This document shows, one piece after another, positions 1 through 63,760 of a DNA stretch of 64,000 nucleotides (the first letter of the stretch is position 1; each line of letters opens with the position of its first letter). The stretch is from a virus, in the IMG/VR virus record IMGVR_UViG_3300035698_012408; one strand, written 5' to 3'. The notes beneath the pieces are model-generated. The model was not told the origin of the DNA. It saw only the letters and a list, made by a program, of their open reading frames with translations, and did not search any database. The position numbers and the translations under genes are program-made.

Positions 1-222
1 CAGCGACGTGCAATCGGTGATTTGTCCGATGAGCACGCGGGCGGTTGAATTGAAACTAAGCAGCGACGCGGCAGTCTGGTTTTGCGGGTCCTGATTCGGT
101 CGCGATTGGTTGATAGGACCTGGAGCCCCGTACTGGGCCTCCATCATCTTATTACCTTGCCGCCTGCCGACAGCACCCATATCCTGCTGAGCTACCGTGC
201 GCTTGCCTGTGAGATTAGGCAT
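1..222 (-). CDS. hypothetical protein, N-terminal part only (gene runs off the window); tail-module position downstream of the tube
   Basis: Not in the ORF track because it is truncated. ATG at 222 is preceded by an AGGTGGAG SD. My translation starts MPNLTGKRTVAQQDMGAVGRRQGNKMMEAQYGAPGP and stays open to position 1. Confidence 0.4.
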   Translation of the reverse strand, partial: MPNLTGKRTVAQQDMGAVGRRQGNKMMEAQYGAPGPINQSRPNQDPQNQTAASLLSFNSTARVLIGQITDCTSL

Positions 223-6034: not shown

Positions 6035-6170
6035 CTTCTGCTATGACCCGTTCCGCTTCCGGGCCAAAAAGTAACTTGCTGTCCTGCATCATCTTACTGA
6101 TTTCGGCCTGCACTGGCTTGATGGCTGGCCGCCGAGGCGTCGTGAAGTAAAGATCAACGATTTGAGTCAT
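5994..6170 (-). CDS. small acidic hypothetical protein
   Basis: ATG at 6170 is preceded by an AGGAGCAG SD. The track ORF starts at 6203. Ends with an acidic tail, DDATHGDDDDAVD. Confidence 0.35.
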   Translation of the reverse strand: MTQIVDLYFTTPRRPAIKPVQAEISKMMQDSKLLFGPEAERVIAEDDATHGDDDDAVD

Positions 6171-7200
6171 CCGATTGCTGCTCCTGCGGGTCCCATGATT
6201 CAAGACAACAGTGTAGCTGCCACCTAGTTATCATTCTACCCCAATTGAATTGCTCTAGCAAGCGTCTAACCGTCGCTCTAACCTTCCGACCCATCTGCAC
6301 TTCAGGTGAGTACCGCTCTCGAAGGCCCCGCAGCATCTCGCACGTCTCCACGTGTATTCGTGGGTCATCGCCGGCGATACCCATCGGCACCGAACCGATG
6401 TTGTTCGATGCTTCTATGTCTGCCCGTGGGAGGTTAGCGAGAGCTTGAGTGAGCTCACGGCTACGCTCCTCGGCGTCGATCTCCCGGACTGGTCGGTTGG
6501 TCTCAGTCGCTCGGTCACGATCCGGGTCGGCGACCAGCTCGCGATCGAGCTGTCCACTGTTCATCACGCGGTCCAGCTCGTCGTTCGAGATCTGCATCGG
6601 GGGCATGATGCGACGGTAAAATCCCTCTTCCCGCATCCGTGAGTAAGTAAATTCGTTTACCGCGTCGATCGCTGCCCGGTTGTCGCTGGGAGTGTTCAGT
6701 TGGTCGAACAGATGCTCATTGAGCGTCCGAGTGGTCAACCGCTCCTGTTCCTGCCTGCACGTGTGTGGAGCGGTGATGAACCGCATCCAATCTCGAACTG
6801 ACAGTCGCATCCGCTGACGCTGCGTCGGGCCGGTCCATCCGTTTCTAAGTACCGCGCGTTGCTCTTCCTCCGGCGGGTCTTCTGCGCCCCACGCCCGGAT
6901 CTCTTCTAGCAGTCTTTCCGGCAGCAGTATAGGCTCCGGCACCTGGAACGTCGGCAAGTCGTGGAGTGCTCGCTGCAAGGCCTCTCGGTTGATCCCGCCA
7001 GCGAACACGTCCCCATTGCGGTTCGGCACTTCGCCGTCCGCTGCAATCGCCAGGAGAAACCGTCGATCCTCTGCCAAGATTGTGTCGGTGATGAACTCAG
7101 GATGTCTGGCTGCCAGCGTGGCACGGTAGCTCACAAACGGGATACTAATATCCCGAGCGACTTGCTCCACGCTGCCCGTAATCACTACCGATGCCGCCAT
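6154..7200 (-). CDS. hypothetical head-associated protein carrying a copy of the major capsid protein N-terminal motif
   Basis: 348 aa. Residues LNEHLFDQLNTPSDNRAAIDAVNEFTYSRMREEGFYRRIMPPMQISNDELDR match the MCP segment LNETLFEQLQTPGMEKQAIDAVNDFTRTKMREDGFFRRILPPLQISNDELDR. Confidence 0.55.
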   Translation of the reverse strand: MAASVVITGSVEQVARDISIPFVSYRATLAARHPEFITDTILAEDRRFLLAIAADGEVPNRNGDVFAGGINREALQRALHDLPTFQVPEPILLPERLLEEIRAWGAEDPPEEEQRAVLRNGWTGPTQRQRMRLSVRDWMRFITAPHTCRQEQERLTTRTLNEHLFDQLNTPSDNRAAIDAVNEFTYSRMREEGFYRRIMPPMQISNDELDRVMNSGQLDRELVADPDRDRATETNRPVREIDAEERSRELTQALANLPRADIEASNNIGSVPMGIAGDDPRIHVETCEMLRGLRERYSPEVQMGRKVRATVRRLLEQFNWGRMITRWQLHCCLESWDPQEQQSDDSNR

Positions 7201-9892: not shown

Positions 9893-10822
9893 TTACGCGA
9901 AGTCGGCTCGGGCGATGCCACCGGCGTGTCCGATACTTCCACCCATCGTCTGATAGGCGAAGAATTCGAGCATGTACGCTTCACGACGAATGTACATGGT
10001 CGTATCTTCTAGCAGATACGACTTACCGATGAACTTGGGATCGGCGAACATGAACATCGAGTCGTCGGGGACCAGATCGCGCTTGATCGTGATGATCCAA
10101 CGCATGTTCATGAAGTTGGCTTCAGCCCAACCGTTCTTGATGACGTCCTGGGAGAAATCTCCGCCCATTTCGTCACGTCCAAACTTCTCGATCTCCTTGA
10201 TCGTCACGTTGTTGATCAGGCACGTATGCGATTCGAGATGACTCGGACCGCGCGGCATGATCTTACGGGCGTCTTGGAGGGTCTCACGGGTGATGCCACC
10301 TTCAATGGTTTCCCACTGAACGACATTGCCGTTGTACGGCACCGGGACGTCCGGGCCGATCATCAAAGCGTTGCACGCAGAGATGAATTTCGAGTCTTCT
10401 TCGGCTAGCATATCTTTGATGCTATTATCCGAAAGGACCTGTCGAATGTCCATGACCCATGTGCGAAGCTCGTCCACGTCCTTGACGAATCGAGGCGTGA
10501 CAATGCGGTCGAACATTACGCGGTAACGAGGACCACGAATGTAGACATTGACAGGCAACGTCGCGAACGGAATCGAGATCGCAGCCGGGGAATCCGGCTC
10601 TTTGTCGACGACTTTGACAGGCTTGTCGGTGTCGACTTGCCGGTCCAACTCGTCGTTGGAAATCTGGAGGGGTGGAAGAATTCGGCGGAAGAAGCCGTCC
10701 TCACGCATCTTGGTTCGCGTGAAGTCGTTGACGGCGTCAATCGCTTGCTTCTCCATCCCGGGAGTTTGCAGTTGCTCAAACAGTGTCTCGTTGAGCAGCT
10801 GGGTATCAGTTTGGGTTGCCAT
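9893..10822 (-). CDS. major capsid protein, HK97-fold type
   Basis: About 309 aa. The C-terminus TTMYIRREAYMLEFFAYQTMGGSIGHAGGIARADFA is typical of HK97-like MCPs, and the position after scaffold/decoration candidates fits. ATG at 10822 has an ACGGAGG SD. The track ORF starts at 10858. Confidence 0.75.
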   Translation of the reverse strand: MATQTDTQLLNETLFEQLQTPGMEKQAIDAVNDFTRTKMREDGFFRRILPPLQISNDELDRQVDTDKPVKVVDKEPDSPAAISIPFATLPVNVYIRGPRYRVMFDRIVTPRFVKDVDELRTWVMDIRQVLSDNSIKDMLAEEDSKFISACNALMIGPDVPVPYNGNVVQWETIEGGITRETLQDARKIMPRGPSHLESHTCLINNVTIKEIEKFGRDEMGGDFSQDVIKNGWAEANFMNMRWIITIKRDLVPDDSMFMFADPKFIGKSYLLEDTTMYIRREAYMLEFFAYQTMGGSIGHAGGIARADFA

Positions 10823-10907
10823 CGTAGCAAACCTCCGTGTTTTCGGGATGTCAGCCAATCATGGCCGATTGATTACAATGTACGCTCTGCTTTCGGAAGA
10901 CCACCTG

Positions 10908-47329: not shown

Positions 47330-48760
47330 TTAAATAATTCGACTTAGTAATTGTGCCACAGGCGATGCCTGCTTTACGAGAAATCCATCCGTGCCAGCCC
47401 CGACACGTGTCCCACCACTCCGCCCATTGTCTCCTGGGACATGAAGCCCATCCTGCCCGGCGGTTCCCGATCTGGAGCTCGCCCCACCACTTGGTCGTGA
47501 TCCTCCCGGAAACTCCGTGGTGCCAGCTCTCTTGGTGGTGGCATTAGGCCCTGCGGCAGGTCCTGCACCTCGTCCATGATCGGCGTGTTCGAGGTCACTC
47601 CGCGAATCCGATCGGCTGCACGTGACAGACCATGTGGCTGTCTTGGTTCGGGCAACGGCTCCAGCATTGCTGGCCGCGTGTGCAACTGCGGCGGTTCGTG
47701 AGACCGTGGCGGCTCCTGCTGGTACAGCGAATGGAACGACTGGAACGCGTGCTCCTGCGGCTCCACCGGCAGATCCCGACTTAGTTGCTCCACCTGCCGC
47801 CCGTCCTCCGTCATTATCCAAGACACTCCGATGAACCTCGGGTCGCTGTACATGTGCTTCCGTTGCGGTCGCGAGACGATCCACAGCGGACCCCCGGGCG
47901 GAGGTGGCGGGGTCCACAGTTGCGGCAGCGACAACACCCGGGACGGCGGCTCCACCAGCTTTGCTAGTGGCGGAGGTAACGGCTTCTCCGGTGGCAGCTT
48001 GATCAGACCCAAATCCCCCGACTTTATAACGCGGATCACGATATGATCGCCAGTCTCGGATCGCATCGAGGACTTGATTTCCTGTCTGAGCCTTCGACGC
48101 ATCCCCCGACTGGCTATCGGCTGCGTAACTGGTTGATTCACTTGCGTTTGTGTCATAGAAACTGCTCCCGCTCTTCCCAAAAACTGGTATGTTTTCGTGA
48201 ATTGGATCGGTACTTAGAAACCGTCCAGGGTTATGAATCAGGCTGCCCTTTTTGACATTGCCAGCCTGAAGGACTCGCTTCTTGCGAATCGCGAAGGTGC
48301 TATGGAACTTGAACTCGCCGTTCTTCGGCAGGCCGCTCAGTCCATAACTTTTACGTAGCTTCTCCAGCTCGGGGCTGTGGATTTCGATCATCCAACACTT
48401 GGAGACGTCATCCCAGCCGTGAGGTGATACTGCCCGCACTGGGCCCAACGTGTAACCGAAGGACTTACCACGTTCTGTTATCTTATCACCTCCACCGATT
48501 TCGTCAATCTCTTCTTTCCGCATTACCGAGACATGAGCCCTATAATTCCCAGAATCTTGCTTGGGTACCTCGGTCCCTGGCTCATTCAACGCTTGGAACG
48601 CACCATGCCCTAAGGCGTTCGGTACGTCCATCAGGAGCCACCCGGAGGCAGATAGGTAGAGTTTGCCCTGGAGCGAGTACGAAAGCTCAGGGGCAGCCGC
48701 AGCCATCTTGCGACCGCCCCGAGCTTCGCAACCTTGGCGGGTTGTATCAGTCATTGACAT
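47330..48760 (-). CDS. 2H-phosphoesterase-like protein (LigT / cyclic-nucleotide phosphodiesterase superfamily); only the N-terminal ~190 aa look genuine
   Basis: Two H-x-[ST]-x motifs about 78 aa apart: RAHVSVMRK and FKFHSTFAIRK. The ORF has no in-frame stop until 47330 and so overlaps the better-supported 47374-48156 frame. The likely start at 48760 lies 5 nt after the upstream stop. Confidence 0.5.
   Translation of the reverse strand: MSMTDTTRQGCEARGGRKMAAAAPELSYSLQGKLYLSASGWLLMDVPNALGHGAFQALNEPGTEVPKQDSGNYRAHVSVMRKEEIDEIGGGDKITERGKSFGYTLGPVRAVSPHGWDDVSKCWMIEIHSPELEKLRKSYGLSGLPKNGEFKFHSTFAIRKKRVLQAGNVKKGSLIHNPGRFLSTDPIHENIPVFGKSGSSFYDTNASESTSYAADSQSGDASKAQTGNQVLDAIRDWRSYRDPRYKVGGFGSDQAATGEAVTSATSKAGGAAVPGVVAAATVDPATSARGSAVDRLATATEAHVQRPEVHRSVLDNDGGRAAGGATKSGSAGGAAGARVPVVPFAVPAGAATVSRTAAVAHAASNAGAVARTKTATWSVTCSRSDSRSDLEHADHGRGAGPAAGPNATTKRAGTTEFPGGSRPSGGASSRSGTAGQDGLHVPGDNGRSGGTRVGAGTDGFLVKQASPVAQLLSRII
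47374..48156 (-). CDS. Pro-rich hypothetical protein (the frame supported by codon-position GC)
   Basis: ATG at 48156 has a GGGAG SD. Hand counts at 47701-47760 and 47941-48000 give GC3 of 85% and 70% in this frame, versus 40% and 50% in the overlapping 511-aa frame. Confidence 0.5.
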   Translation of the reverse strand: MTQTQVNQPVTQPIASRGMRRRLRQEIKSSMRSETGDHIVIRVIKSGDLGLIKLPPEKPLPPPLAKLVEPPSRVLSLPQLWTPPPPPGGPLWIVSRPQRKHMYSDPRFIGVSWIMTEDGRQVEQLSRDLPVEPQEHAFQSFHSLYQQEPPRSHEPPQLHTRPAMLEPLPEPRQPHGLSRAADRIRGVTSNTPIMDEVQDLPQGLMPPPRELAPRSFREDHDQVVGRAPDREPPGRMGFMSQETMGGVVGHVSGLARMDFS

Positions 48761-48765
48761 ACCTG

Positions 48766-49461
48766 TTATTCTTTGGATGGTGTGATTGTCGTGCGATCCA
48801 ACAACTGGGAATTGATTACATCCTGGGCCCCACGACTCTCCGCACCCCTTATGATCTGTGGCCACCGGCGATCCTGTTGCATCTGTATCGCCTCCACTTG
48901 TGTTTGCAGCCTACCGATCGACACCCACATTTCTCGACGATCAAGCTGACACTCATCCGTGATCCTATGGAGCTTCTCGACCTCGAAATGTGCATCCATC
49001 AACTGCACCTCTTCCCGTCCCAGCCGATCGATAACATCAGGATGCGCTGGCAGCGCCTCGTGCTCGCTGAGCATCTGACGCGTCTCGCCCACATCCACGC
49101 TTATCGGGGACATCGTCATGTTCACAAAGGCCACGAAGACCCCGCCAAGGGCCAATGAAGCCACGATGGCTGACATAACCAGCGGCCAGCTCACCTGACC
49201 ATGCTGCGATACTTCGTGTTGCTGTTCGTCGATTCGCCGGTGGATCTCAGCTGACCGTCCGGTCGCGCGTAAATCCGACTCCTGCATCATCCGCCGCGTC
49301 TCTTCAAACCCGGCTGTTACGGTGCGGTTTGTCTGCTCGACCATTTGCAACGTATGCTGCATGTCGCGCTCCAACCCGGTGACCCGACCTTCCAAATGTG
49401 CGTGTGCCTGGCCTGTAGCAACAGCGGCCTTCGCAGTCCCTGCTTCTTGTGTTCCAGCCAT
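48766..49461 (-). CDS. coiled-coil protein with a central transmembrane helix
   Basis: The codon-position signal supports coding only from MAGTQEAG (49461) onwards. The track start is 49653. TM segment WPLVMSAIVASLALGGVFVAFV. Confidence 0.5.
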   Translation of the reverse strand: MAGTQEAGTAKAAVATGQAHAHLEGRVTGLERDMQHTLQMVEQTNRTVTAGFEETRRMMQESDLRATGRSAEIHRRIDEQQHEVSQHGQVSWPLVMSAIVASLALGGVFVAFVNMTMSPISVDVGETRQMLSEHEALPAHPDVIDRLGREEVQLMDAHFEVEKLHRITDECQLDRREMWVSIGRLQTQVEAIQMQQDRRWPQIIRGAESRGAQDVINSQLLDRTTITPSKE

Positions 49462-55188: not shown

Positions 55189-55902
55189 TCAATCAGTTTG
55201 CGGGGCCAACCCGCATTGTTCTATTTGGTCCGGTGCATACGGGCGGGTGGGACACATCAGGCTCGGCTTATCCGAGAAGCTCAGCAGCGGCGTCTTCGCC
55301 GTAAACATGTCGAACGTGTCCCAGTGATTCCGCAGCCACATGTCAACAGGGACGCGAGCGAACGCATACCCGTGATACAGCTTCTGCAACCTCCCCGTCC
55401 TGTTATAGAGATACCCCAAGCTGCCCCAGCCGTAAATACCAGAATACAGCAAACGCGTGGCCTCTTTTTTCCTGGGTCCCGACGTCCTGGGCTCCGGCCC
55501 TTCATTCCAGCCGTACTTGCGATCGAACAGGTTGATGGCGTCCCACGAGTCGAGCTGCTTAGCGTGTGCTATCAGCGTCAACAGCGATTTCCTGAACCCA
55601 ACAAGCGGGACCACGTCATCCTCCAGCACCACCAAGTGAGGCTGCTTGTATCGTGTGATAAAGTAGTACAACGCCTTCGAGTGCCCCTCCAGGCAGCTGC
55701 GACACCGCTGAAGATAATTGCTGTCTGTGATGTCGCCGCCCGGGCGGTCGTACATCCCCGTCATATAATTGCCATTGACCTGTTCCGGCGGCGGCGAACG
55801 GATGAAGTCGAAGGGCACGCCGACAGCCTTCATGTTCTCACGCATCATCTCTTGACGATCCGTGGCTCCCGGCACTGTCACAACTAATACTTTGCAATTC
55901 AT
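55189..55902 (-). CDS. glycosyltransferase family 25-like
   Basis: CLEGHSKALYYFITRYKQPHLVVLEDDVVP matches the GT25 pattern (Cys/His region followed by ilEDDv). ATG at 55902 has a GGAGG SD. Confidence 0.6.
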   Translation of the reverse strand: MNCKVLVVTVPGATDRQEMMRENMKAVGVPFDFIRSPPPEQVNGNYMTGMYDRPGGDITDSNYLQRCRSCLEGHSKALYYFITRYKQPHLVVLEDDVVPLVGFRKSLLTLIAHAKQLDSWDAINLFDRKYGWNEGPEPRTSGPRKKEATRLLYSGIYGWGSLGYLYNRTGRLQKLYHGYAFARVPVDMWLRNHWDTFDMFTAKTPLLSFSDKPSLMCPTRPYAPDQIEQCGLAPQTD

Positions 55903-55943
55903 CAAAATAACCTCCAGCGTCGCAGTGACGCCTGCCCCTTATT

Positions 55944-56951
55944 CTAACTTGCCCACCCCTGCACGTCGAGACGTGCTCGCACCGCAGGGATATATTTATA
56001 ACAAGCGTCTATGATGCACTTTGCAAAGTATTCGACATTGAGCCAATGCTTATCCATCGCCTTCAGGTACTCGTGGGCCGCCATAATGCGATCTCGCTGC
56101 AATAATTCCGGTGCTTCCTTGATGTCATCATAGAACAACGGGTAGCCCGTGCCAAGGTATTCTTCCAGTGCCGGCTTCCGATTTAGCAGGATTGGTGCTT
56201 CCCTCGCGATGCACTCAACCACCGTGTTCGTGGCCGTCACGCCCAGGTAATGGGCAAAGATCACGCTCGACGCTACCAGCTCATTGTACTCGGCATTCGG
56301 TATCCAGCCGTGCTCCTGCACCCGTGGAGGCCGTGGGCAGTCCCGATTGTGCTCCAAGCAGTGATGATGGGCGTTCCGCTGCCACGGGTACTGATGCTCC
56401 AGCAGACGATGCTTCTCGTAGCCGGGCGGCACCCGCATCGTGTAGATCTGCGACGTGTCGCGCAGGTACCAGCCGGTCTGCACTAGCCGCCGCTTCAGCT
56501 TGTCAGGGTCCCACTTCGGGACATCCAACCGCGTCGGATGCCTGATGGGCACGACTGGACACAGCCCCCACTTCTCCAGATGTGGTATCTGCGACTCGCT
56601 CATGGCGATGAGGAAGCTGCACTTCTCTCTCGCCGCGAACCAGCGATCCTGAATGGCCCCGGTGCATTTCGACCAATGCCCGAGCGGGTTGCACCACTGG
56701 TACCGTAGCGGGCGATCGGCCGGCAGATGGCAGACCCCGAACCACGTGTCGCACTGCGAACTATTCTGGAATATGCTCCAGTCAACCGGCAGCCCCAGCG
56801 TACGCTCCACTGCATCATCAAAGATCACCGTGCTGTCGACGTCGAACAGCGGTGCCAGATGCTTCTGAATCCAGGGCCACCCATCACAGTGGTCCCAATC
56901 CTTATGATGCGGATGATCCGGGACCTTCCGAAATATCTTCTCGACCGTCAT
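55944..56951 (-). CDS. possible glycosyltransferase (GT-B-like C-terminal signature); weak
   Basis: 335 aa. VTATNTVVECIAREAPILLNRKPALEEYLGTGYPLFYDD resembles the sugar-donor half of GT-B enzymes. Trp/His/Cys-rich N-terminal half. Confidence 0.3.
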   Translation of the reverse strand: MTVEKIFRKVPDHPHHKDWDHCDGWPWIQKHLAPLFDVDSTVIFDDAVERTLGLPVDWSIFQNSSQCDTWFGVCHLPADRPLRYQWCNPLGHWSKCTGAIQDRWFAAREKCSFLIAMSESQIPHLEKWGLCPVVPIRHPTRLDVPKWDPDKLKRRLVQTGWYLRDTSQIYTMRVPPGYEKHRLLEHQYPWQRNAHHHCLEHNRDCPRPPRVQEHGWIPNAEYNELVASSVIFAHYLGVTATNTVVECIAREAPILLNRKPALEEYLGTGYPLFYDDIKEAPELLQRDRIMAAHEYLKAMDKHWLNVEYFAKCIIDACYKYIPAVRARLDVQGWAS

Positions 56952-59497: not shown

Positions 59498-61252
59498 TCA
59501 TCCCCGTTCAGCGAACGAGGTAGCAAATTGCACAACATCCGCCTTCTTCGTCAGCTTCTTCAGCCGTCTGTTGTGCGGCTGCGGCATGGCCTTCTTGCCC
59601 GTCTTGTGCGTCATGGAGTAACGCGGGGCCTTGGCACAAGCAGCTGCTTGCTTCTCTTCGTCTTCCTCGTCGTCCGAGCCAAACGCACTGTAGAGCCCGT
59701 AGGCCCCTAATCCGCCGAGACCGAGAGCCGCTGGGCCAAGCCAGCCACTGTCGGAGAGCTGTCGCGTCCAGGCGTCCGGGGCTTCGCCGCCGAGGTTCTC
59801 GAACCACTTCCGAGCTGTGTCGATCGAGTTCGACATCCAACCCCGATCTTGATCCGTGCCTGGGCGTGGTGCGCGATTGGATGTCTGCTGCCCCGCCACC
59901 ATATACGGCTTCTTGGCGTAGAACAGCGAGGCCAGCCCTCGGTCATCCGGGACATCTGCCATGCTGTTGGCATACGTGATGCCCTTCGGCAATGCTGACC
60001 CGGGCGTGGGTGTCGAGCGGGCTTGCATGGCCTTCTCATAGTTCTTCCACAGCCCGGGCATGGGTGTTGGCGGTGGCGTGTCTACCGGCGGTGTGAACGT
60101 AGGCGCCCCTGGCACATAGTTCGGCTGCGGTGGTGCTTGCAATGGTGGTGGCGAGCCCGTCGGCGCTGCACCATCCATCACCGGGCCTGCTAGCTTAGTG
60201 AGAGTCATGTCATTCTCCATTCCCTGGAGTAATAGGTTTGATTTATGAGCAGCCGTCTTGAGCTCCGACTTCTCTTCTTCGTCGTCTTCTTCCTCGGCCC
60301 CGCCGCCCATGTGGAGGAGCTTGTAAATTCCTAGAAGCCCCGCAGCTGTCACGCCGAGGCCAGCGGCGGCTCTCCACGGGTTGATCTCCGGTGGAGCCAG
60401 CCCTTGCAGTTTGTTGTAATATTTCTGCGTGAAGGTTGGTGCCCCGGTCACTTTGCTCCACCCGTAGCGAGCCCAGCCTGGAACGCCTTCAACGAGCGCA
60501 TGTGGCCCACCGTCCACTGTAGCATCCCAATAATCCTTCAGCGTGTTGGAGCCGCCACCAGCTGGCTGCCCGCCATTGCGTGCGTTCTCCATCCGCTTCT
60601 TCAACAACACCATTGACATGCTGGGGAACTCGTCCTCGTGCATTGCCCAGTTAGCACCATGATTATGGATATGATGTTCGGTGTTCGGATGACGGTAGGT
60701 GGTAAGCTGCGACTGCCCTGTCTCCGGCACGGCCACAAGGCTCTCCACGAACCCCATGCGTTCGAGATCCTCCAGCCCGACACCGCGACCACGCGATGAA
60801 ATGCCTTGCGGCGACTTGGCTGCAAATGCCTCATGCAACGATGCGGGAGGAGCTGGAGCAGCTGGGTTCGCTGTTGGTGCTGCTGTCCCAAGCGATGGGG
60901 TTGTTGGTGCTGCCGGCGCCGGTGCCGGCGCCGATGCCGCCGCAGTATTCGGAAACAGCACTCGCGGTAACAACGGATCGGGTGCGTCAGGATCAGTGTC
61001 CAGTCGCTGTGCATGCTCACTCAAATTGTAAACAGGCGACTGCTCATCCGACGTCACGCCGAAACGCCGCATCACGCCCTCGGCCGACAGCGGAGAGACC
61101 GTCTCATTGTAAGCCTCCCGCCACGGTTCGATGACACCTTCCCCGGGCTGTACCTTGTGCCCTTCGGGTGCCACAATACGTGGATCGAGGTAGGACGCCG
61201 CACCAACGGCAGTCGAGGCCAAATTGAACCCTTGTAAGAGTTGCGGAAGCAT
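59498..61252 (-). CDS. Pro-rich protein with two 'glycine-zipper TM plus acidic patch' modules
   Basis: 584 aa. WRAAAGLGVTAAGLLGIYKLLHMGGGAEEEDDEEEK and WLGPAALGLGGLGAYGLYSAFGSDDEEDEEK. GGAGG SD upstream. Confidence 0.6.
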   Translation of the reverse strand: MLPQLLQGFNLASTAVGAASYLDPRIVAPEGHKVQPGEGVIEPWREAYNETVSPLSAEGVMRRFGVTSDEQSPVYNLSEHAQRLDTDPDAPDPLLPRVLFPNTAAASAPAPAPAAPTTPSLGTAAPTANPAAPAPPASLHEAFAAKSPQGISSRGRGVGLEDLERMGFVESLVAVPETGQSQLTTYRHPNTEHHIHNHGANWAMHEDEFPSMSMVLLKKRMENARNGGQPAGGGSNTLKDYWDATVDGGPHALVEGVPGWARYGWSKVTGAPTFTQKYYNKLQGLAPPEINPWRAAAGLGVTAAGLLGIYKLLHMGGGAEEEDDEEEKSELKTAAHKSNLLLQGMENDMTLTKLAGPVMDGAAPTGSPPPLQAPPQPNYVPGAPTFTPPVDTPPPTPMPGLWKNYEKAMQARSTPTPGSALPKGITYANSMADVPDDRGLASLFYAKKPYMVAGQQTSNRAPRPGTDQDRGWMSNSIDTARKWFENLGGEAPDAWTRQLSDSGWLGPAALGLGGLGAYGLYSAFGSDDEEDEEKQAAACAKAPRYSMTHKTGKKAMPQPHNRRLKKLTKKADVVQFATSFAERG

Positions 61253-61255
61253 CAG

Positions 61256-61675
61256 TTATTGCCTCCGACTGCGTAACGGCGACCTGAGGGGTGATTGCAG
61301 CCGCGAGAACATCCGCTCTCCATCGTCCTCGTCACCTTGGACCTGATCCATAAGATGACTGGTGCCCAGGTAGCCGGCACCGCCGCCAGCGATCATGGCA
61401 AGCACTCGCAGCCACGGGTTCTGGACTTTGTCGGTCAGAGCCCCGCCAAGCATCGCACCGACACCAGTGCCGGTACCCTTGGCTGCCCCACGAGTGACGT
61501 CTCGTAAGGTGTCGCCGGTGTTGCTGGCAAGAAGCCCGCCACCGAGTGCAGATGCGCCGATCATCCACGGGGCTGCCGCCCCAGCGTTCATCTCCTGGTC
61601 AGCAGCCTTCTCCAACGGAGCGGCGGCCAGATCTTGCGCCCACTTAATCATCAGCTGCGTGCCTGTGCTTGGCAT
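61256..61675 (-). CDS. small glycine-zipper membrane protein
   Basis: ATG at 61675 has a TGGAGA SD. Segments are MIGASALGGGLLAS, GTGVGAMLGGAL and LAMIAGGGAGYLG, followed by an acidic QGDEDDGE. Confidence 0.55.
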   Translation of the reverse strand: MPSTGTQLMIKWAQDLAAAPLEKAADQEMNAGAAAPWMIGASALGGGLLASNTGDTLRDVTRGAAKGTGTGVGAMLGGALTDKVQNPWLRVLAMIAGGGAGYLGTSHLMDQVQGDEDDGERMFSRLQSPLRSPLRSRRQ

Positions 61676-61704
61676 TACGATCTCCAATCCCTGGAAACGT
61701 GTCG

Positions 61705-61899
61705 TTATCGTGCTTTGTCCGGCCAGTAGACCGTGCAACCGAGGTCGTGGTTATAGCAGCTGTTGAGCCGCTTCATCTGATGCTCATCTTGGCGCCAGTG
61801 CTTCTTCAACCATTCGTAGTCAGGTGTCTTGAGTCGCCCTGTCGCGATCGCGTCTGCTCTTGCCCGTGCTCTTGGGCCCATTACGGCGGTGTCAGCCAT
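61705..61899 (-). CDS. small hypothetical protein
   Basis: 64 aa. AGGAG SD 8 nt upstream of the ATG at 61899. Overlaps the thioredoxin-like gene end by 19 nt. Confidence 0.45.
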   Translation of the reverse strand: MADTAVMGPRARARADAIATGRLKTPDYEWLKKHWRQDEHQMKRLNSCYNHDLGCTVYWPDKAR

Positions 61900-62246
61900 C
61901 GCAATAACTCCTGTCCGGTGAGTACCTCACCCGCTGCTTTGGTCTGCCGTAGCAAGACCGCTTTCCCTGTGGTAGCGTCGTAATCCACCAGGAACATCCT
62001 CGGTATCTTCGTGACACCATACTTAGTAAACGCCGAGTCGTCTGTTGCATTATCGGCATCATACGCCCAAATGGCAATACCATGTTGCCGAATTACGGCC
62101 TGAGCAGCCGCCGTGCGGAGGTGCGCTGACTGTGATTGACAGCCAGGGCACCACGCCGCACTAAACCTCATAACGACCGTTTCACCTGCTTGGCTCGATG
62201 ACATCAGAAACCATAAGAACATCAGGCACAACAGGTAACGTCGCAT
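61881..62246 (-). CDS. exported thioredoxin-fold protein (WCPGC active site)
   Basis: From the ATG at 62246: signal peptide MRRYLLCLMFLWFLMSSSQA, then FSAAWCPGCQ. The track ORF start at 62324 overlaps the peptidase gene. Confidence 0.65.
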   Translation of the reverse strand: MRRYLLCLMFLWFLMSSSQAGETVVMRFSAAWCPGCQSQSAHLRTAAAQAVIRQHGIAIWAYDADNATDDSAFTKYGVTKIPRMFLVDYDATTGKAVLLRQTKAAGEVLTGQELLRWLTPP

Positions 62247-62250
62247 AATC

Positions 62251-62895
62251 TTACTCCCAGGCCCTCTTCTCGACCGGAACGCACGCCTCGCCCTGAGCCG
62301 CCAGCAGCAACGCCATGTCATCAAAGCTGATCTTGGCGTAGCCCTTCTTGCCCCAGTTCTCGCCCCAGGAGTTCTTGATCTTGAAGAACCCCTTGGTGAC
62401 GTTGACGCCGCAGCATAGGTAGGCGTGACCGCCGTGAATGGCCCCTGTGGCGTGGATGAAGCCCTTCTTGTCGGTCTCCATCATGCCCGCCATCCAGTTC
62501 GTGCCCAAGACAATAGGGCCGATCTCCAGCAGTGTGTCGACCATCTCCTGTAACGTCTTGGCCCACCAATACGACTCGACCATGCCGAGACGCTGGGCTA
62601 CCTTGACGCCAGCACGCACCGACGTCCCGTCGTAGCTCTCGCCCACCCACTCGTCATTCTGCTGTGCGAAGGCATAGATGCCATTCGGGTTCAGCATCTG
62701 GCGGATCGGGTGGGCAGCCAGGAAGTGAGCAACCGAGAAGCCCACACAACGAGGCGTGGAGCCTTGGTCGCCAGTCCACCAGCCGGTGTTCCAGTAACGG
62801 TAGGTCCGCGCGTCCAAAGCGACGGCCCAAGTAGGTATGCGGAACTTCTCGTCACGCTTATCGGGAGCGTAATGACGTGCGAATTGACGAATCAT
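62251..62895 (-). CDS. papain-family (C1) cysteine peptidase
   Basis: DQGSTPRCVGFSVAHF (Gln/Cys region), GGHAYLCCG (His) and KIKNSWGENWGKKGYAKI (Asn-Ser-Trp-Gly) match the C1A catalytic motifs in order. Confidence 0.8.
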   Translation of the reverse strand: MIRQFARHYAPDKRDEKFRIPTWAVALDARTYRYWNTGWWTGDQGSTPRCVGFSVAHFLAAHPIRQMLNPNGIYAFAQQNDEWVGESYDGTSVRAGVKVAQRLGMVESYWWAKTLQEMVDTLLEIGPIVLGTNWMAGMMETDKKGFIHATGAIHGGHAYLCCGVNVTKGFFKIKNSWGENWGKKGYAKISFDDMALLLAAQGEACVPVEKRAWE

Positions 62896-62908
62896 CTGAT
62901 TCTCCAGG

Positions 62909-63760
62909 TTATAGTTTGACTTTGGTCATCCCTAGTGTTCCCACTGGGATGTTGACAGCTTGTTCTTTGCCGAGCAGGATGCCCCCGGCGACCACCCAGG
63001 CGAAGGCCTCGAACATGTAGGCCTGCTTAGCGGCGTAGACCTCGATCGGCTTCCGCTGCTTCACCTCGACAATCGTCTCACCCTTGCCGCGGGTGGTACG
63101 CATGTGTTTTCGGGCAGTCTTGGTCTTGGCGTTTAGCTCCTGGGCAATGCCTATGAGCATCTGGGCCAGCAGGTCTGCCAAAGCATAGCAGTCCAGCTCC
63201 TCCAGGTCTATGCAGTAACGGGCCGAGACGATGCGATCCTTCTTAATTCCCGGCTGTCCGAACTGCCTGGGCAGCTGGGTCGTAATCTCGTCCACCAGTG
63301 TCCAATCGCCGCGACGCTGGCGAGTAGCCCGAGAGCTCCATGTCTGCAAGACGGCTTGGATCTCCGCCTGCCCGCCATGTGCGAGCACCGGCAGCAGTAG
63401 AGTATGAATCTTCGGCTCAGGCACGTGCCGATTGAGTTCCTTATCGGTCCGCAGATACACGTTGATGGGGATCGTGGCGAACGGGATGCTCATGGCCACG
63501 TCGCGAGCAGGGCCCCCACGTCTGCCTCTTCGGTTGCGGTGCCGAGTACAGCGGGTCACATACCAGTCCAGCTCGCGGATGATCTGATCAATCTCCTGCT
63601 TGGTCAGTGTGGACGGTAGGCGGCCACGCATTATCGCCTCGTGGTCCTGCCGGACTCCGTGCGTCGGATTAGGCTCTGGATGTCCTGCCAGTGTGTCGGC
63701 ACCGATAACTGCAAAAGCGGCCGAAGCCGCCACACCCGTGATCATGTCTCTGCGTTTCAT
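62909..63760 (-). CDS. diverged capsid-like (HK97-motif) protein with a twin-arginine-type N-terminal leader
   Basis: MKRRDMITGVAASAAFAVIGA resembles a Tat signal. AMSIPFATIPINVYLRT matches the MCP's AISIPFATLPVNVYIRG, and QAYMFEAFAWVVAGGIL matches the MCP's EAYMLEFFAYQTMGGSI. Confidence 0.45.
   Translation of the reverse strand: MKRRDMITGVAASAAFAVIGADTLAGHPEPNPTHGVRQDHEAIMRGRLPSTLTKQEIDQIIRELDWYVTRCTRHRNRRGRRGGPARDVAMSIPFATIPINVYLRTDKELNRHVPEPKIHTLLLPVLAHGGQAEIQAVLQTWSSRATRQRRGDWTLVDEITTQLPRQFGQPGIKKDRIVSARYCIDLEELDCYALADLLAQMLIGIAQELNAKTKTARKHMRTTRGKGETIVEVKQRKPIEVYAAKQAYMFEAFAWVVAGGILLGKEQAVNIPVGTLGMTKVKL

Follow-up and report, generated by a model that had tools for sequence, protein, structure and literature searches.

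To our knowledge, all known uses of the HK97 fold are cytoplasmic shells built from the complete fold, namely capsids and, in cells, encapsulins. T4 gp24, a vertex paralogue of gp23, has the full fold and is placed at the vertices of the capsid. Encapsulins keep the A-domain, the P-domain and the E-loop, assemble into closed cytoplasmic shells and have no leader for the twin-arginine translocation (Tat) pathway. The usual reasons for which a protein is directed to Tat are fast folding, oligomerisation or a bound partner, the classical motif of this pathway is (S/T)RRxFLK, and the small and large subunits of hydrogenase represent a pair in which one protein hitch-hikes on the other. Blockers of superinfection, such as P1 Sim, T4 Sp and Imm or T5 Llp, take Sec or lipoprotein routes, and none of them originates from a capsid protein. 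Here we describe a 283-aa open reading frame (ORF) found in a 64,000-nucleotide stretch of the IMG/VR virus record IMGVR_UViG_3300035698_012408 (the whole of this stretch is referred to below as the window). It is probable, rather than certain, that its product is a P-domain module derived from the major capsid protein (MCP), which is exported in the folded state by the Tat system of the host and acts in the envelope and not in the capsid.

The 283-aa protein shares with HK97-fold MCPs (that of the same phage and PDB 6wkk_A) a profile homology of the E-loop strands, the spine helix and the P-domain strands, which follow each other in the same order, but it has neither A-domain nor N-arm, contains a helical tip of ~65 aa, begins with a Tat-type leader, is encoded far from the head genes and shows no global structural match. 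As with T4 gp24, we seem to be dealing with a duplicated and diverged copy of an MCP residing in the same genome; in contrast to gp24, this copy is devoid of the capsomer-forming domain and carries a predicted export signal. Encapsulins offer the precedent of an HK97-derived protein outside the virion, but none of their defining features was found in the 283-aa protein (no Pfam match at all, no A-domain, no structural match). Its family leader resembles those of bacterial Tat substrates (CueO, for instance, with MQRRDFLK…) in the RRxFLK-like motif, the mild Ala/Gly-rich h-region and the small-x-small site. It differs from these substrates in being phage-encoded and in having an apparently capsid-derived mature domain without a cofactor-binding motif, while its export is predicted from sequence. 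With the superinfection blockers named above it is united by functional analogy only, as a non-structural and presumably envelope-directed phage protein, and there is no sequence or structural kinship to any of them. A search of the literature gave no report of a Tat-exported derivative of a capsid protein, although such absence is no proof.

A protein family related to the major capsid protein

The 283-aa ORF represents an undescribed protein family. It had no match in Pfam, PHROGs and NCBIfam, and a word-indexed homology search with its sequence returned a single relative, P0002 (37% identity), while only 3 proteins scored in a search of the same type with the family profile. The family was collected by an exhaustive HMMER search with the 283-aa protein and P0002 among 1.84 billion proteins, taken as representatives at the 50%-identity cluster level. 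It comprises 95 representatives at E < 1e-3 (50 at E < 1e-10), which are mostly 220–300 aa long and overall 20–30% identical to each other. Neither the protein nor the family consensus had a tblastn match in 50,697 isolate phage genomes, blastn of the locus gave no match either, and pattern scans of IMG/VR for family members either picked up MCP genes of related phages instead or came back empty. A motif-pattern scan of GTDB genomes registered six MCP genes in bins of metagenome-assembled genomes and zero family members. These bins (Gemmataceae, Phycisphaerae, Nannocystaceae, Nanopelagicales, Alphaproteobacteria and unclassified) are too mixed, and for this reason no host is named. A haloarchaeal host was considered and rejected, as the 283-aa protein is basic (pI 9.9). 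Scanning of metagenomes added three more family loci and many MCPs, none of these contigs having both.

The MCP gene of the same phage is also present in the window (Table 1). Its product matches NCBIfam 'HK97-fold major capsid protein' (E 1e-6) and, weakly, phrog_2522 'major head protein', shows 27% identity to the annotated MCP of Salmonella phage Arash across 95% of its length and, being combined with its relatives into a profile, aligns to PDB 6wkk_A 'Gp27 major capsid protein' with E 3.8e-7. In this alignment AISIPFATLPVNVYIRG-PRYRVMFDRIVTPRF falls on the E-loop hairpin and DVDELRTW… corresponds to the start of the spine helix. Judged by sequence, this is a bona fide HK97-type capsid protein.

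The initial annotation of this DNA quoted two MCP-like strands in the 283-aa protein. Both strings are exact and their partner is indeed this MCP: MSIPFATIPINVYLRT corresponds to ISIPFATLPVNVYIRG and QAYMFEAFAWVVAGGIL to EAYMLEFFAYQTMGGSI. The middle part of the protein, which had been described as not alignable by eye, can be aligned in part, as an additional collinear segment, DRIVSARYCIDLEELDCYAL against DRIVTPRFVKDVDELRTWVM, continues into the spine helix and brings the number of common segments to three. In the first motif 11 of 16 residues are identical and 8 of these are specified by different codons; in the second one the same is true for 4 of the 8 identities among 17 residues, so that the synonymous differences in DNA noticed at the outset are real. 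Since identical residues so often use different codons, the match appears to be old and kept at the level of protein, rather than to be a recent copy of DNA, and recent gene conversion as a source of the likeness is ruled out by the same synonymous-site differences. Chance similarity is ruled out as well. The best 16-residue window of the 283-aa/MCP pair contains 12 identities against 6–8 in 100 shuffles, phmmer gave E-values from 1.7e-5 to 3.1e-5 among 696 ORFs of the window, and the hidden Markov model (HMM) of the family recognised the window MCP with E 9.2e-18 and every related MCP fetched with E of about 1e-17.

The stretches found by the family HMM are collinear (family positions 68–92, 150–172 and 218–241 versus MCP positions 86–110, 113–135 and 287–310). 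Comparison of the family with the MCP by hhalign placed family residues 84–220 on MCP residues 76–153 with 98.2% probability and E 3.1e-14, leaving a gap of ~60 residues in the MCP between NVYxR and DRIVxPR. Profile homology to HK97-fold MCPs is therefore present but partial, being confined to the E-loop strands, the spine helix and the P-domain strands. According to these data, derivation of the 283-aa protein from the phage's own HK97-type MCP is supported at the level of sequence profiles; the earlier description of an HK97-derived protein holds in respect of this homology and fails in respect of the full fold, which is absent. The motif SIPFATLPxNVY is invariant in the window-type clade of MCPs and absent from the more distant MCPs of Arash and Vibrio phages, so that the duplication most probably arose within the clade of the window phage.

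Retained and lost parts of the capsid fold

The AlphaFold2 (AF2) model of the 283-aa protein built from a 68-sequence family alignment has a local confidence score (pLDDT) of 85.5 and a template modelling score (pTM) of 0.80, whereas a two-sequence alignment (the window protein and P0002) gave pLDDT 31. Elements of the model are collected in Table 1. Their order, taken together with the profile alignments, suggests that the protein consists of the E-loop base, the spine helix and the P-domain sheet, with a helical domain substituted for the tip of the E-loop. This insertion holds a conserved PEPxI motif, from which E115 and P116 are kept in P0002 and PEP is preserved in the family consensus. 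The A-domain (~130 aa) is absent: the model passes directly from the helix 191–224 to the strands 230–264, and MCP residues ~160–265 have no counterpart. The MCP-type N-arm is absent too. A structural check for the HK97 fold had been proposed in the initial annotation, and its outcome is that the modelled protein is not a complete HK97 fold: both the A-domain and the N-arm are missing, and Foldseek gave no significant capsid match, those to capsid proteins having a query TM-score of ~0.1.

The C-terminal end of the protein repeats the E-loop strand motif in a degenerate form (AVNIPVGTL…; Table 1). Copies of this second motif, with APLGTLPLHQY and LPIATLPLNVY among their forms, are situated at the C-termini of P0002, P0005, P0006 and P0038 and internally in P0007 and P0017. 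The region has low confidence in the AF2 model and may be a strand for interaction in trans.

The twin-arginine leader

The window protein carries K-R-R-D-M-I-T at residues 2–8, which agrees with a Tat-type motif, and then 16 uncharged residues after the twin arginine (RR), with a maximum 11-residue hydropathy of 2.14. Taken alone, this leader is only suggestive of a Tat signal. The family-wide evidence is strong. In 68 of the 95 members RR stands within the first residues and precedes a run of 12 or more uncharged ones, with the consensus [SN]RR[DE][LFM]LK[GA] among these 68, and R3 is at least 90% conserved in family alignment A2. Hydropathy of the family leaders is 1.83 ± 0.23 against 2.73 in the leader of the thioredoxin-like protein encoded nearby. 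A candidate small-x-small site is present in all 68 RR members, and many of them are textbook cases, such as …LSA↓GEP (here and below the arrow marks the candidate cleavage point). Pfam TAT_signal (PF10518) matched 14 of the 68 (best 4.4e-4), and in PDB the family profile gave only weak sequence matches, all of them to leader regions of recognised Tat substrates (nitrite reductase, Rieske subunit, PaoA, Dyp peroxidase). Since the RRxFLK-type motif is kept across members so dissimilar in the rest of their sequence, one can assume that it functions as a Tat signal. Thus the Tat-type leader noticed initially gains support mainly from conservation in the family and less from the single sequence.

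Gene layout of the locus

All genes of the window are on the minus strand, and the three ORFs which had been placed there by the initial annotation (the 283-aa gene, the peptidase and the thioredoxin) were recovered in the same positions (Table 1). The 283-aa gene is located 53 kb from the head genes amid non-structural ones. A tail-sheath gene is found near the MCP gene and contigs bearing the 283-aa gene reach 215 kb, so that the window is likely to be a part of a jumbo myovirus-like phage. Promoter or terminator signals around the locus did not exceed the shuffled expectation, the window contains no tRNA, and no TatA-like ORF was found in the window or in the fetched relative loci. For the thioredoxin, ATG at 62246 (121 aa, MRRYLL...) is a likelier start than TTG of the 147-aa variant, and the same 121-aa start is used in the metagenome gene call.

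Table 1. Features of the 283-aa protein, its neighbours and the MCP gene. Residues are numbered in the 283-aa protein and positions in the window.
Feature	Residues	Position	Strand	Remarks
MCP ORF		9893..10858; 309 aa from MATQ… = 9893..10822	(-)	putative parent of the common segments
MCP counterpart of first common segment, ISIPFATLPVNVYIRG		10532..10579	(-)	
MCP counterpart of second common segment, EAYMLEFFAYQTMGGSI		9932..9982	(-)	
283-aa gene		62909..63760	(-)	ATG start with purine-rich ribosome-binding site
Predicted Tat signal peptide, MKRRDMITGVAASAAFAVIGADTLAG	1-26	63683..63760	(-)	possible cleavage after IGA21 or LAG26
Leader helix	3-13			AF2
Pro-rich linker	14-50			AF2, disordered/low confidence
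Helix	54-77			AF2
Short strands	90-92, 100-102			AF2
Putative ascending E-loop strand counterpart (first common segment), MSIPFATIPINVYLRT	90-105	63446..63493	(-)	MCP profile puts the stretch on the 6wkk_A E-loop hairpin
Family-specific helical insertion	106-172	63245..63445	(-)	MCP has only the E-loop turn IRGPRY there
Three helices of the insertion	107-148 (107-112, 119-128, 131-148)			AF2, high pLDDT
Putative descending E-loop strand (DRIVSARYCID) and spine-helix counterpart	175-224	63089..63238	(-)	hhalign and AF2
Hairpin	175-185 (strands 175-178, 181-185)			AF2
34-residue helix	191-224			AF2
Putative C-terminal P-domain strand counterparts, …IEVYAAKQAYMFEAFAWVVAGGIL	230-264	62969..63073	(-)	family HMM 218-241 on MCP 287-310; AF2
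Three strands	230-264 (230-236, 240-246, 249-264)			AF2
Second common segment, QAYMFEAFAWVVAGGIL		62975..63025	(-)	
Degenerate second E-loop strand motif	268-283	62912..62959	(-)	
C1 cysteine peptidase, 214 aa		62251..62895	(-)	begins 13 nt past the 283-aa gene
Thioredoxin-fold ORF, 121 aa		61881..62246	(-)	ATG at 62246, 4 nt past the peptidase stop

The peptidase matches PF00112 (Peptidase_C1) with 35.6 bits (cut-off 20.7; 1.3e-8) and phrog_16701 with 8e-54. Its catalytic Gln/Cys and His/Asn motifs, DQGSTPRC, GGHAYLC and IKNSWG, align to PDB 3ois_A, and it has no signal peptide. All this is in line with its previous identification as a C1 enzyme without an obvious signal. The thioredoxin scores 28.1 bits with PF00085 (cut-off 23.5) and contains WCPGC. 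It can be ascribed to the ResA/TlpA/DsbE type by weak NCBIfam matches to thioredoxin, ResA and DsbE, and its best solved relative is ResA, also weak. Its leader (MRRYLLCLMFLWFLMSSSQA↓GE) begins with a twin arginine as well (MRRYLLCLMF…), and the core is more hydrophobic than in Tat leaders of the 283-aa family. Because of this much higher hydrophobicity (see above) the Sec route seems likelier, but the choice is ambiguous. From the earlier description of an exported thioredoxin the fold, the WCPGC site and the hydrophobic leader are therefore retained, while its assignment to Sec is left in doubt by the RR at the very start.

The 283-aa, peptidase and thioredoxin genes are probably co-transcribed, and the company of the two enzymes in the window phage suggests an envelope-directed module. 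Their adjacency is real in the window and is not conserved outside it. In the set of seven family contigs besides the window's own, where a flank of up to 10 kb is visible, the peptidase was seen once, at a distance of 7 kb (L018), and in the others it was not seen within this flank. A scan of IMG/VR with the peptidase gave three relatives. One of them is the C-terminal domain, 39% identical to the window peptidase, of a 617-aa ORF at L023:8816-10666 (IMGVR_UViG_3300003324_000515), in which a GH25-like muramidase region at the N-terminus, a linker rich in Pro and Thr and a single transmembrane segment can be recognised by eye. Such an arrangement hints at a cell-wall action of the peptidase-type domain.

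Just downstream of the thioredoxin there is a probable membrane protein of ~140–160 aa with a glycine-zipper pattern and a weak Pfam match to Rick_17kDa_Anti (61256..61738, minus strand). Another probable membrane protein, Pro/Ala-rich and 584 aa long, is encoded at 59498..61252 on the same strand and contains two hydrophobic segments with an acidic DDEEE cluster after each of them. Past the right end of the window, two genes upstream of the 283-aa gene, lies a 369-aa gene (L001:8349-9458) with a precomputed Pfam match to AcrVA2-like (PF26125), which was not reproduced by hmmscan at E <= 0.01.

Possible function and alternative explanations

According to the explanation that we consider probable, the phage duplicated its own HK97-type MCP and the copy was radically trimmed. 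Two E-loop base strands, the spine helix and three C-terminal P-domain strands would have been kept, the entire A-domain and the MCP-type N-arm would have been lost, and a helical insert of ~65 residues for the E-loop tip, as well as the N-terminal twin-arginine signal peptide, would have been gained. The product may acquire its fold in the cytoplasm, possibly oligomerising or binding a partner there, and be exported by the Tat translocase of the host; after removal of the leader by signal peptidase a basic protein of ~29 kDa would act in the periplasm or envelope and not in the capsid. A number of observations weigh against this proposal. Structural equivalence to the MCP is based on the profile alignment and the order of secondary-structure elements, and none of the Foldseek matches was significant (best E 0.3 in PDB and 0.015 in BFVD), local ones to HK97 P-domains being absent as well. 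A Tat system and a periplasm are assumed to be present in the host. The window protein itself has no TAT_signal match (PF10518 at E <= 0.1; NCBIfam including TIGR01409 at E <= 10); short models are often dropped by HMMER filters. Many relatives have a stronger small-x-small site than the window protein, where it reads IGA↓D or LAG↓H, and 27 of the 95 representatives have no RR leader, most of which look N-terminally truncated and some may truly lack it. Besides, all-against-all BLAST of seven family loci revealed no conserved partner gene that would point to the function.

If the Tat leader is not cleaved, as in Rieske iron–sulphur subunits, it would hold the MCP-derived domain at the inner membrane, on the outer side of the latter. 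The weak cleavage site of the window protein, the Pro-rich low-confidence linker after its leader and the weak matches of the family profile to Rieske Tat signal-anchors in PDB and Pfam (UCR_Fe-S_N and TM_PetC, one member each) are in line with such an anchor, but many relatives have good AxA-type sites (…LSA↓GEP, …VFA↓GDP, …ALA↓A) and the hydrophobic stretch is short (12–22 residues) and Ala/Gly-rich, so that we find it unlikely. Still less credence can be given to the 283-aa protein as a Tat carrier, on which the signal-less C1 peptidase hitch-hikes across the membrane, where the thioredoxin keeps its catalytic cysteine reduced, so that all three make up an envelope-degrading or lysis module. 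Close packing of the three genes with gaps of 13 and 4 nt, the intact motifs and missing leader of the peptidase, resemblance of the thioredoxin to extracytoplasmic reductants of the ResA/DsbE type and the membrane proteins encoded downstream speak in favour of this possibility, as does L023, where fusion of the related domain to a muramidase-like region and a membrane-spanning segment suggests the cell wall as its target. Linkage to the peptidase, however, is not conserved in the seven other loci, and conservation of the family greatly exceeds that of any neighbour. The latter implies that its core role does not depend on the window peptidase.

A place in the virion is improbable to much the same degree. 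As a minor capsid component, the 283-aa protein would be a vertex-specific, portal-proximal or lattice-capping paralogue of the MCP and its leader a cleaved propeptide or an assembly tag. It did keep the most conserved segments of the MCP, and two further ORFs with pieces of the MCP (6154..7200 and 47374..48180, see below) suggest that MCP modules are reused as docking elements. But every capsomer-forming HK97 protein known to us uses the A-domain, which is missing here, a Tat consensus maintained across members only 20–30% identical is not required of a propeptide, and the gene is separated by 53 kb from the head module and surrounded by non-structural genes. A vertex paralogue of the T4 gp24 kind and an encapsulin-like shell were both offered as alternatives in the initial annotation, and both are unlikely, since each of them needs the A-domain to form capsomers; distance from the head genes additionally disfavours the former. 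A closed encapsulin-like shell, or else a decaying MCP pseudogene fragment without any function, would be consistent with the descent from an HK97 protein and with MCP fragments scattered through these genomes. The shell is nevertheless contradicted by the lack of the A-domain and of any Pfam encapsulin or structural match, and the pseudogene by the intact ORF, 95 clusters, the confidently predicted fold and motif conservation resembling the result of purifying selection, which makes either of them hardly credible.

Returning to an exported MCP-derived module, one may speculate further, with little expectation of being right in all particulars, that phages of this clade took their MCP apart into modules and that the P-domain/E-loop-base module, exported folded via Tat, might use capsid-type contacts in the periplasm. 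The C-terminal E-loop strand of some members (AVNIPVGTL in the window protein) could be donated in trans, so that copies of the module would assemble with each other into a sheet or filament, or else the module would bind a partner; superinfection exclusion, envelope remodelling or delivery of a signal-less cell-wall peptidase by hitch-hiking could be the outcome. If this is true, we would have here the first example of a structure of capsid origin assembled outside the cytoplasm. Confirmation of the export as such would reveal a new evolutionary route for the capsid fold, combining domain loss with a move to the envelope, and a rare core phage protein dependent on the Tat pathway of the host. 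It would also help to understand how large uncultured phages act on the envelope of the host.

Genomic context of the relatives

The family contigs compared with the window are 222.5, 213, 62.6, 41, 23.7 (twice) and 21.7 kb long, and the last of them is a near-duplicate of the 222.5-kb locus. Their genes are dense, lie mostly on the same strand and largely have no Pfam matches. Among the recognisable ones there are genes for Dam-type and other methyltransferases, ThyX, nucleoside deoxyribosyltransferase, a tubulin-like protein, many glycosyltransferases and sugar-nucleotide enzymes, and this set fits large phages. The tubulin-like protein (L057:1-841) matches Pfam Tubulin weakly; some jumbo phages are known to encode homologues of tubulin. 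Apart from the family gene, no gene is common to all loci compared.

Sugar-modifying genes are common near the family gene. In the window they occupy positions 55189..56951 (minus strand) and show weak GT25- and GT1-like matches; in the relatives (L015, L021, L022 and L058) GT1, GT2, GT29, GT47, UDP-glucose dehydrogenase, CMP-sugar synthetase and sulfotransferase were registered. Methyltransf_24 is found in three loci, including the own contig of the window phage, and a cold-shock-domain gene is common to two (L001 and L022).

Other fragments of the capsid protein

Fragments of the MCP seem to be repeatedly reused or left behind in this clade, and their presence in several other genes suggests that capsid modules serve as building blocks. 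A 348-aa ORF at 6154..7200 (minus strand), in the structural region, is a mosaic in which pieces of the MCP are permuted. DISIPF is located close to its N-terminus, followed by a spine-helix-like ITDTILAEDRRFL and a weak A-domain-like stretch (ORF residues 42–130 versus MCP 147–247), while the MCP N-arm (MCP 17–91) is found at ORF residues 160–234 with a domain E of 7e-24. This ORF may have originated from a tandem duplication of the MCP. A Pro-rich 268-aa ORF at 47374..48180 (minus strand) includes MYSDPRFIGVSWIM (MCP 268–286) and terminates exactly as the MCP does, with FMSQETMGGVVGHVSGLARMDFS directly before its stop codon (versus MCP 296–321). It is overlapped by a 511-aa ORF (47330..48865, minus strand), which looks real only in the first ~215 residues; its beginning contains two HxS/T motifs, HVSV and HSTF, and by eye resembles a 2H phosphoesterase. 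Codon-position GC changes frame near 48200.

Short ORFs with a single MCP segment were also observed in the relatives (L017:1393-1821, L018:3433-3669, L057:12874-13212, L015:19785-20138, L021:10974-11072 and L014:2-190). They correspond to the N-arm helix, the E-loop strand with the IRGPRY turn, the spine helix or the C-terminal strand, and are situated within a few kb of the family gene, some of them directly adjoining it.

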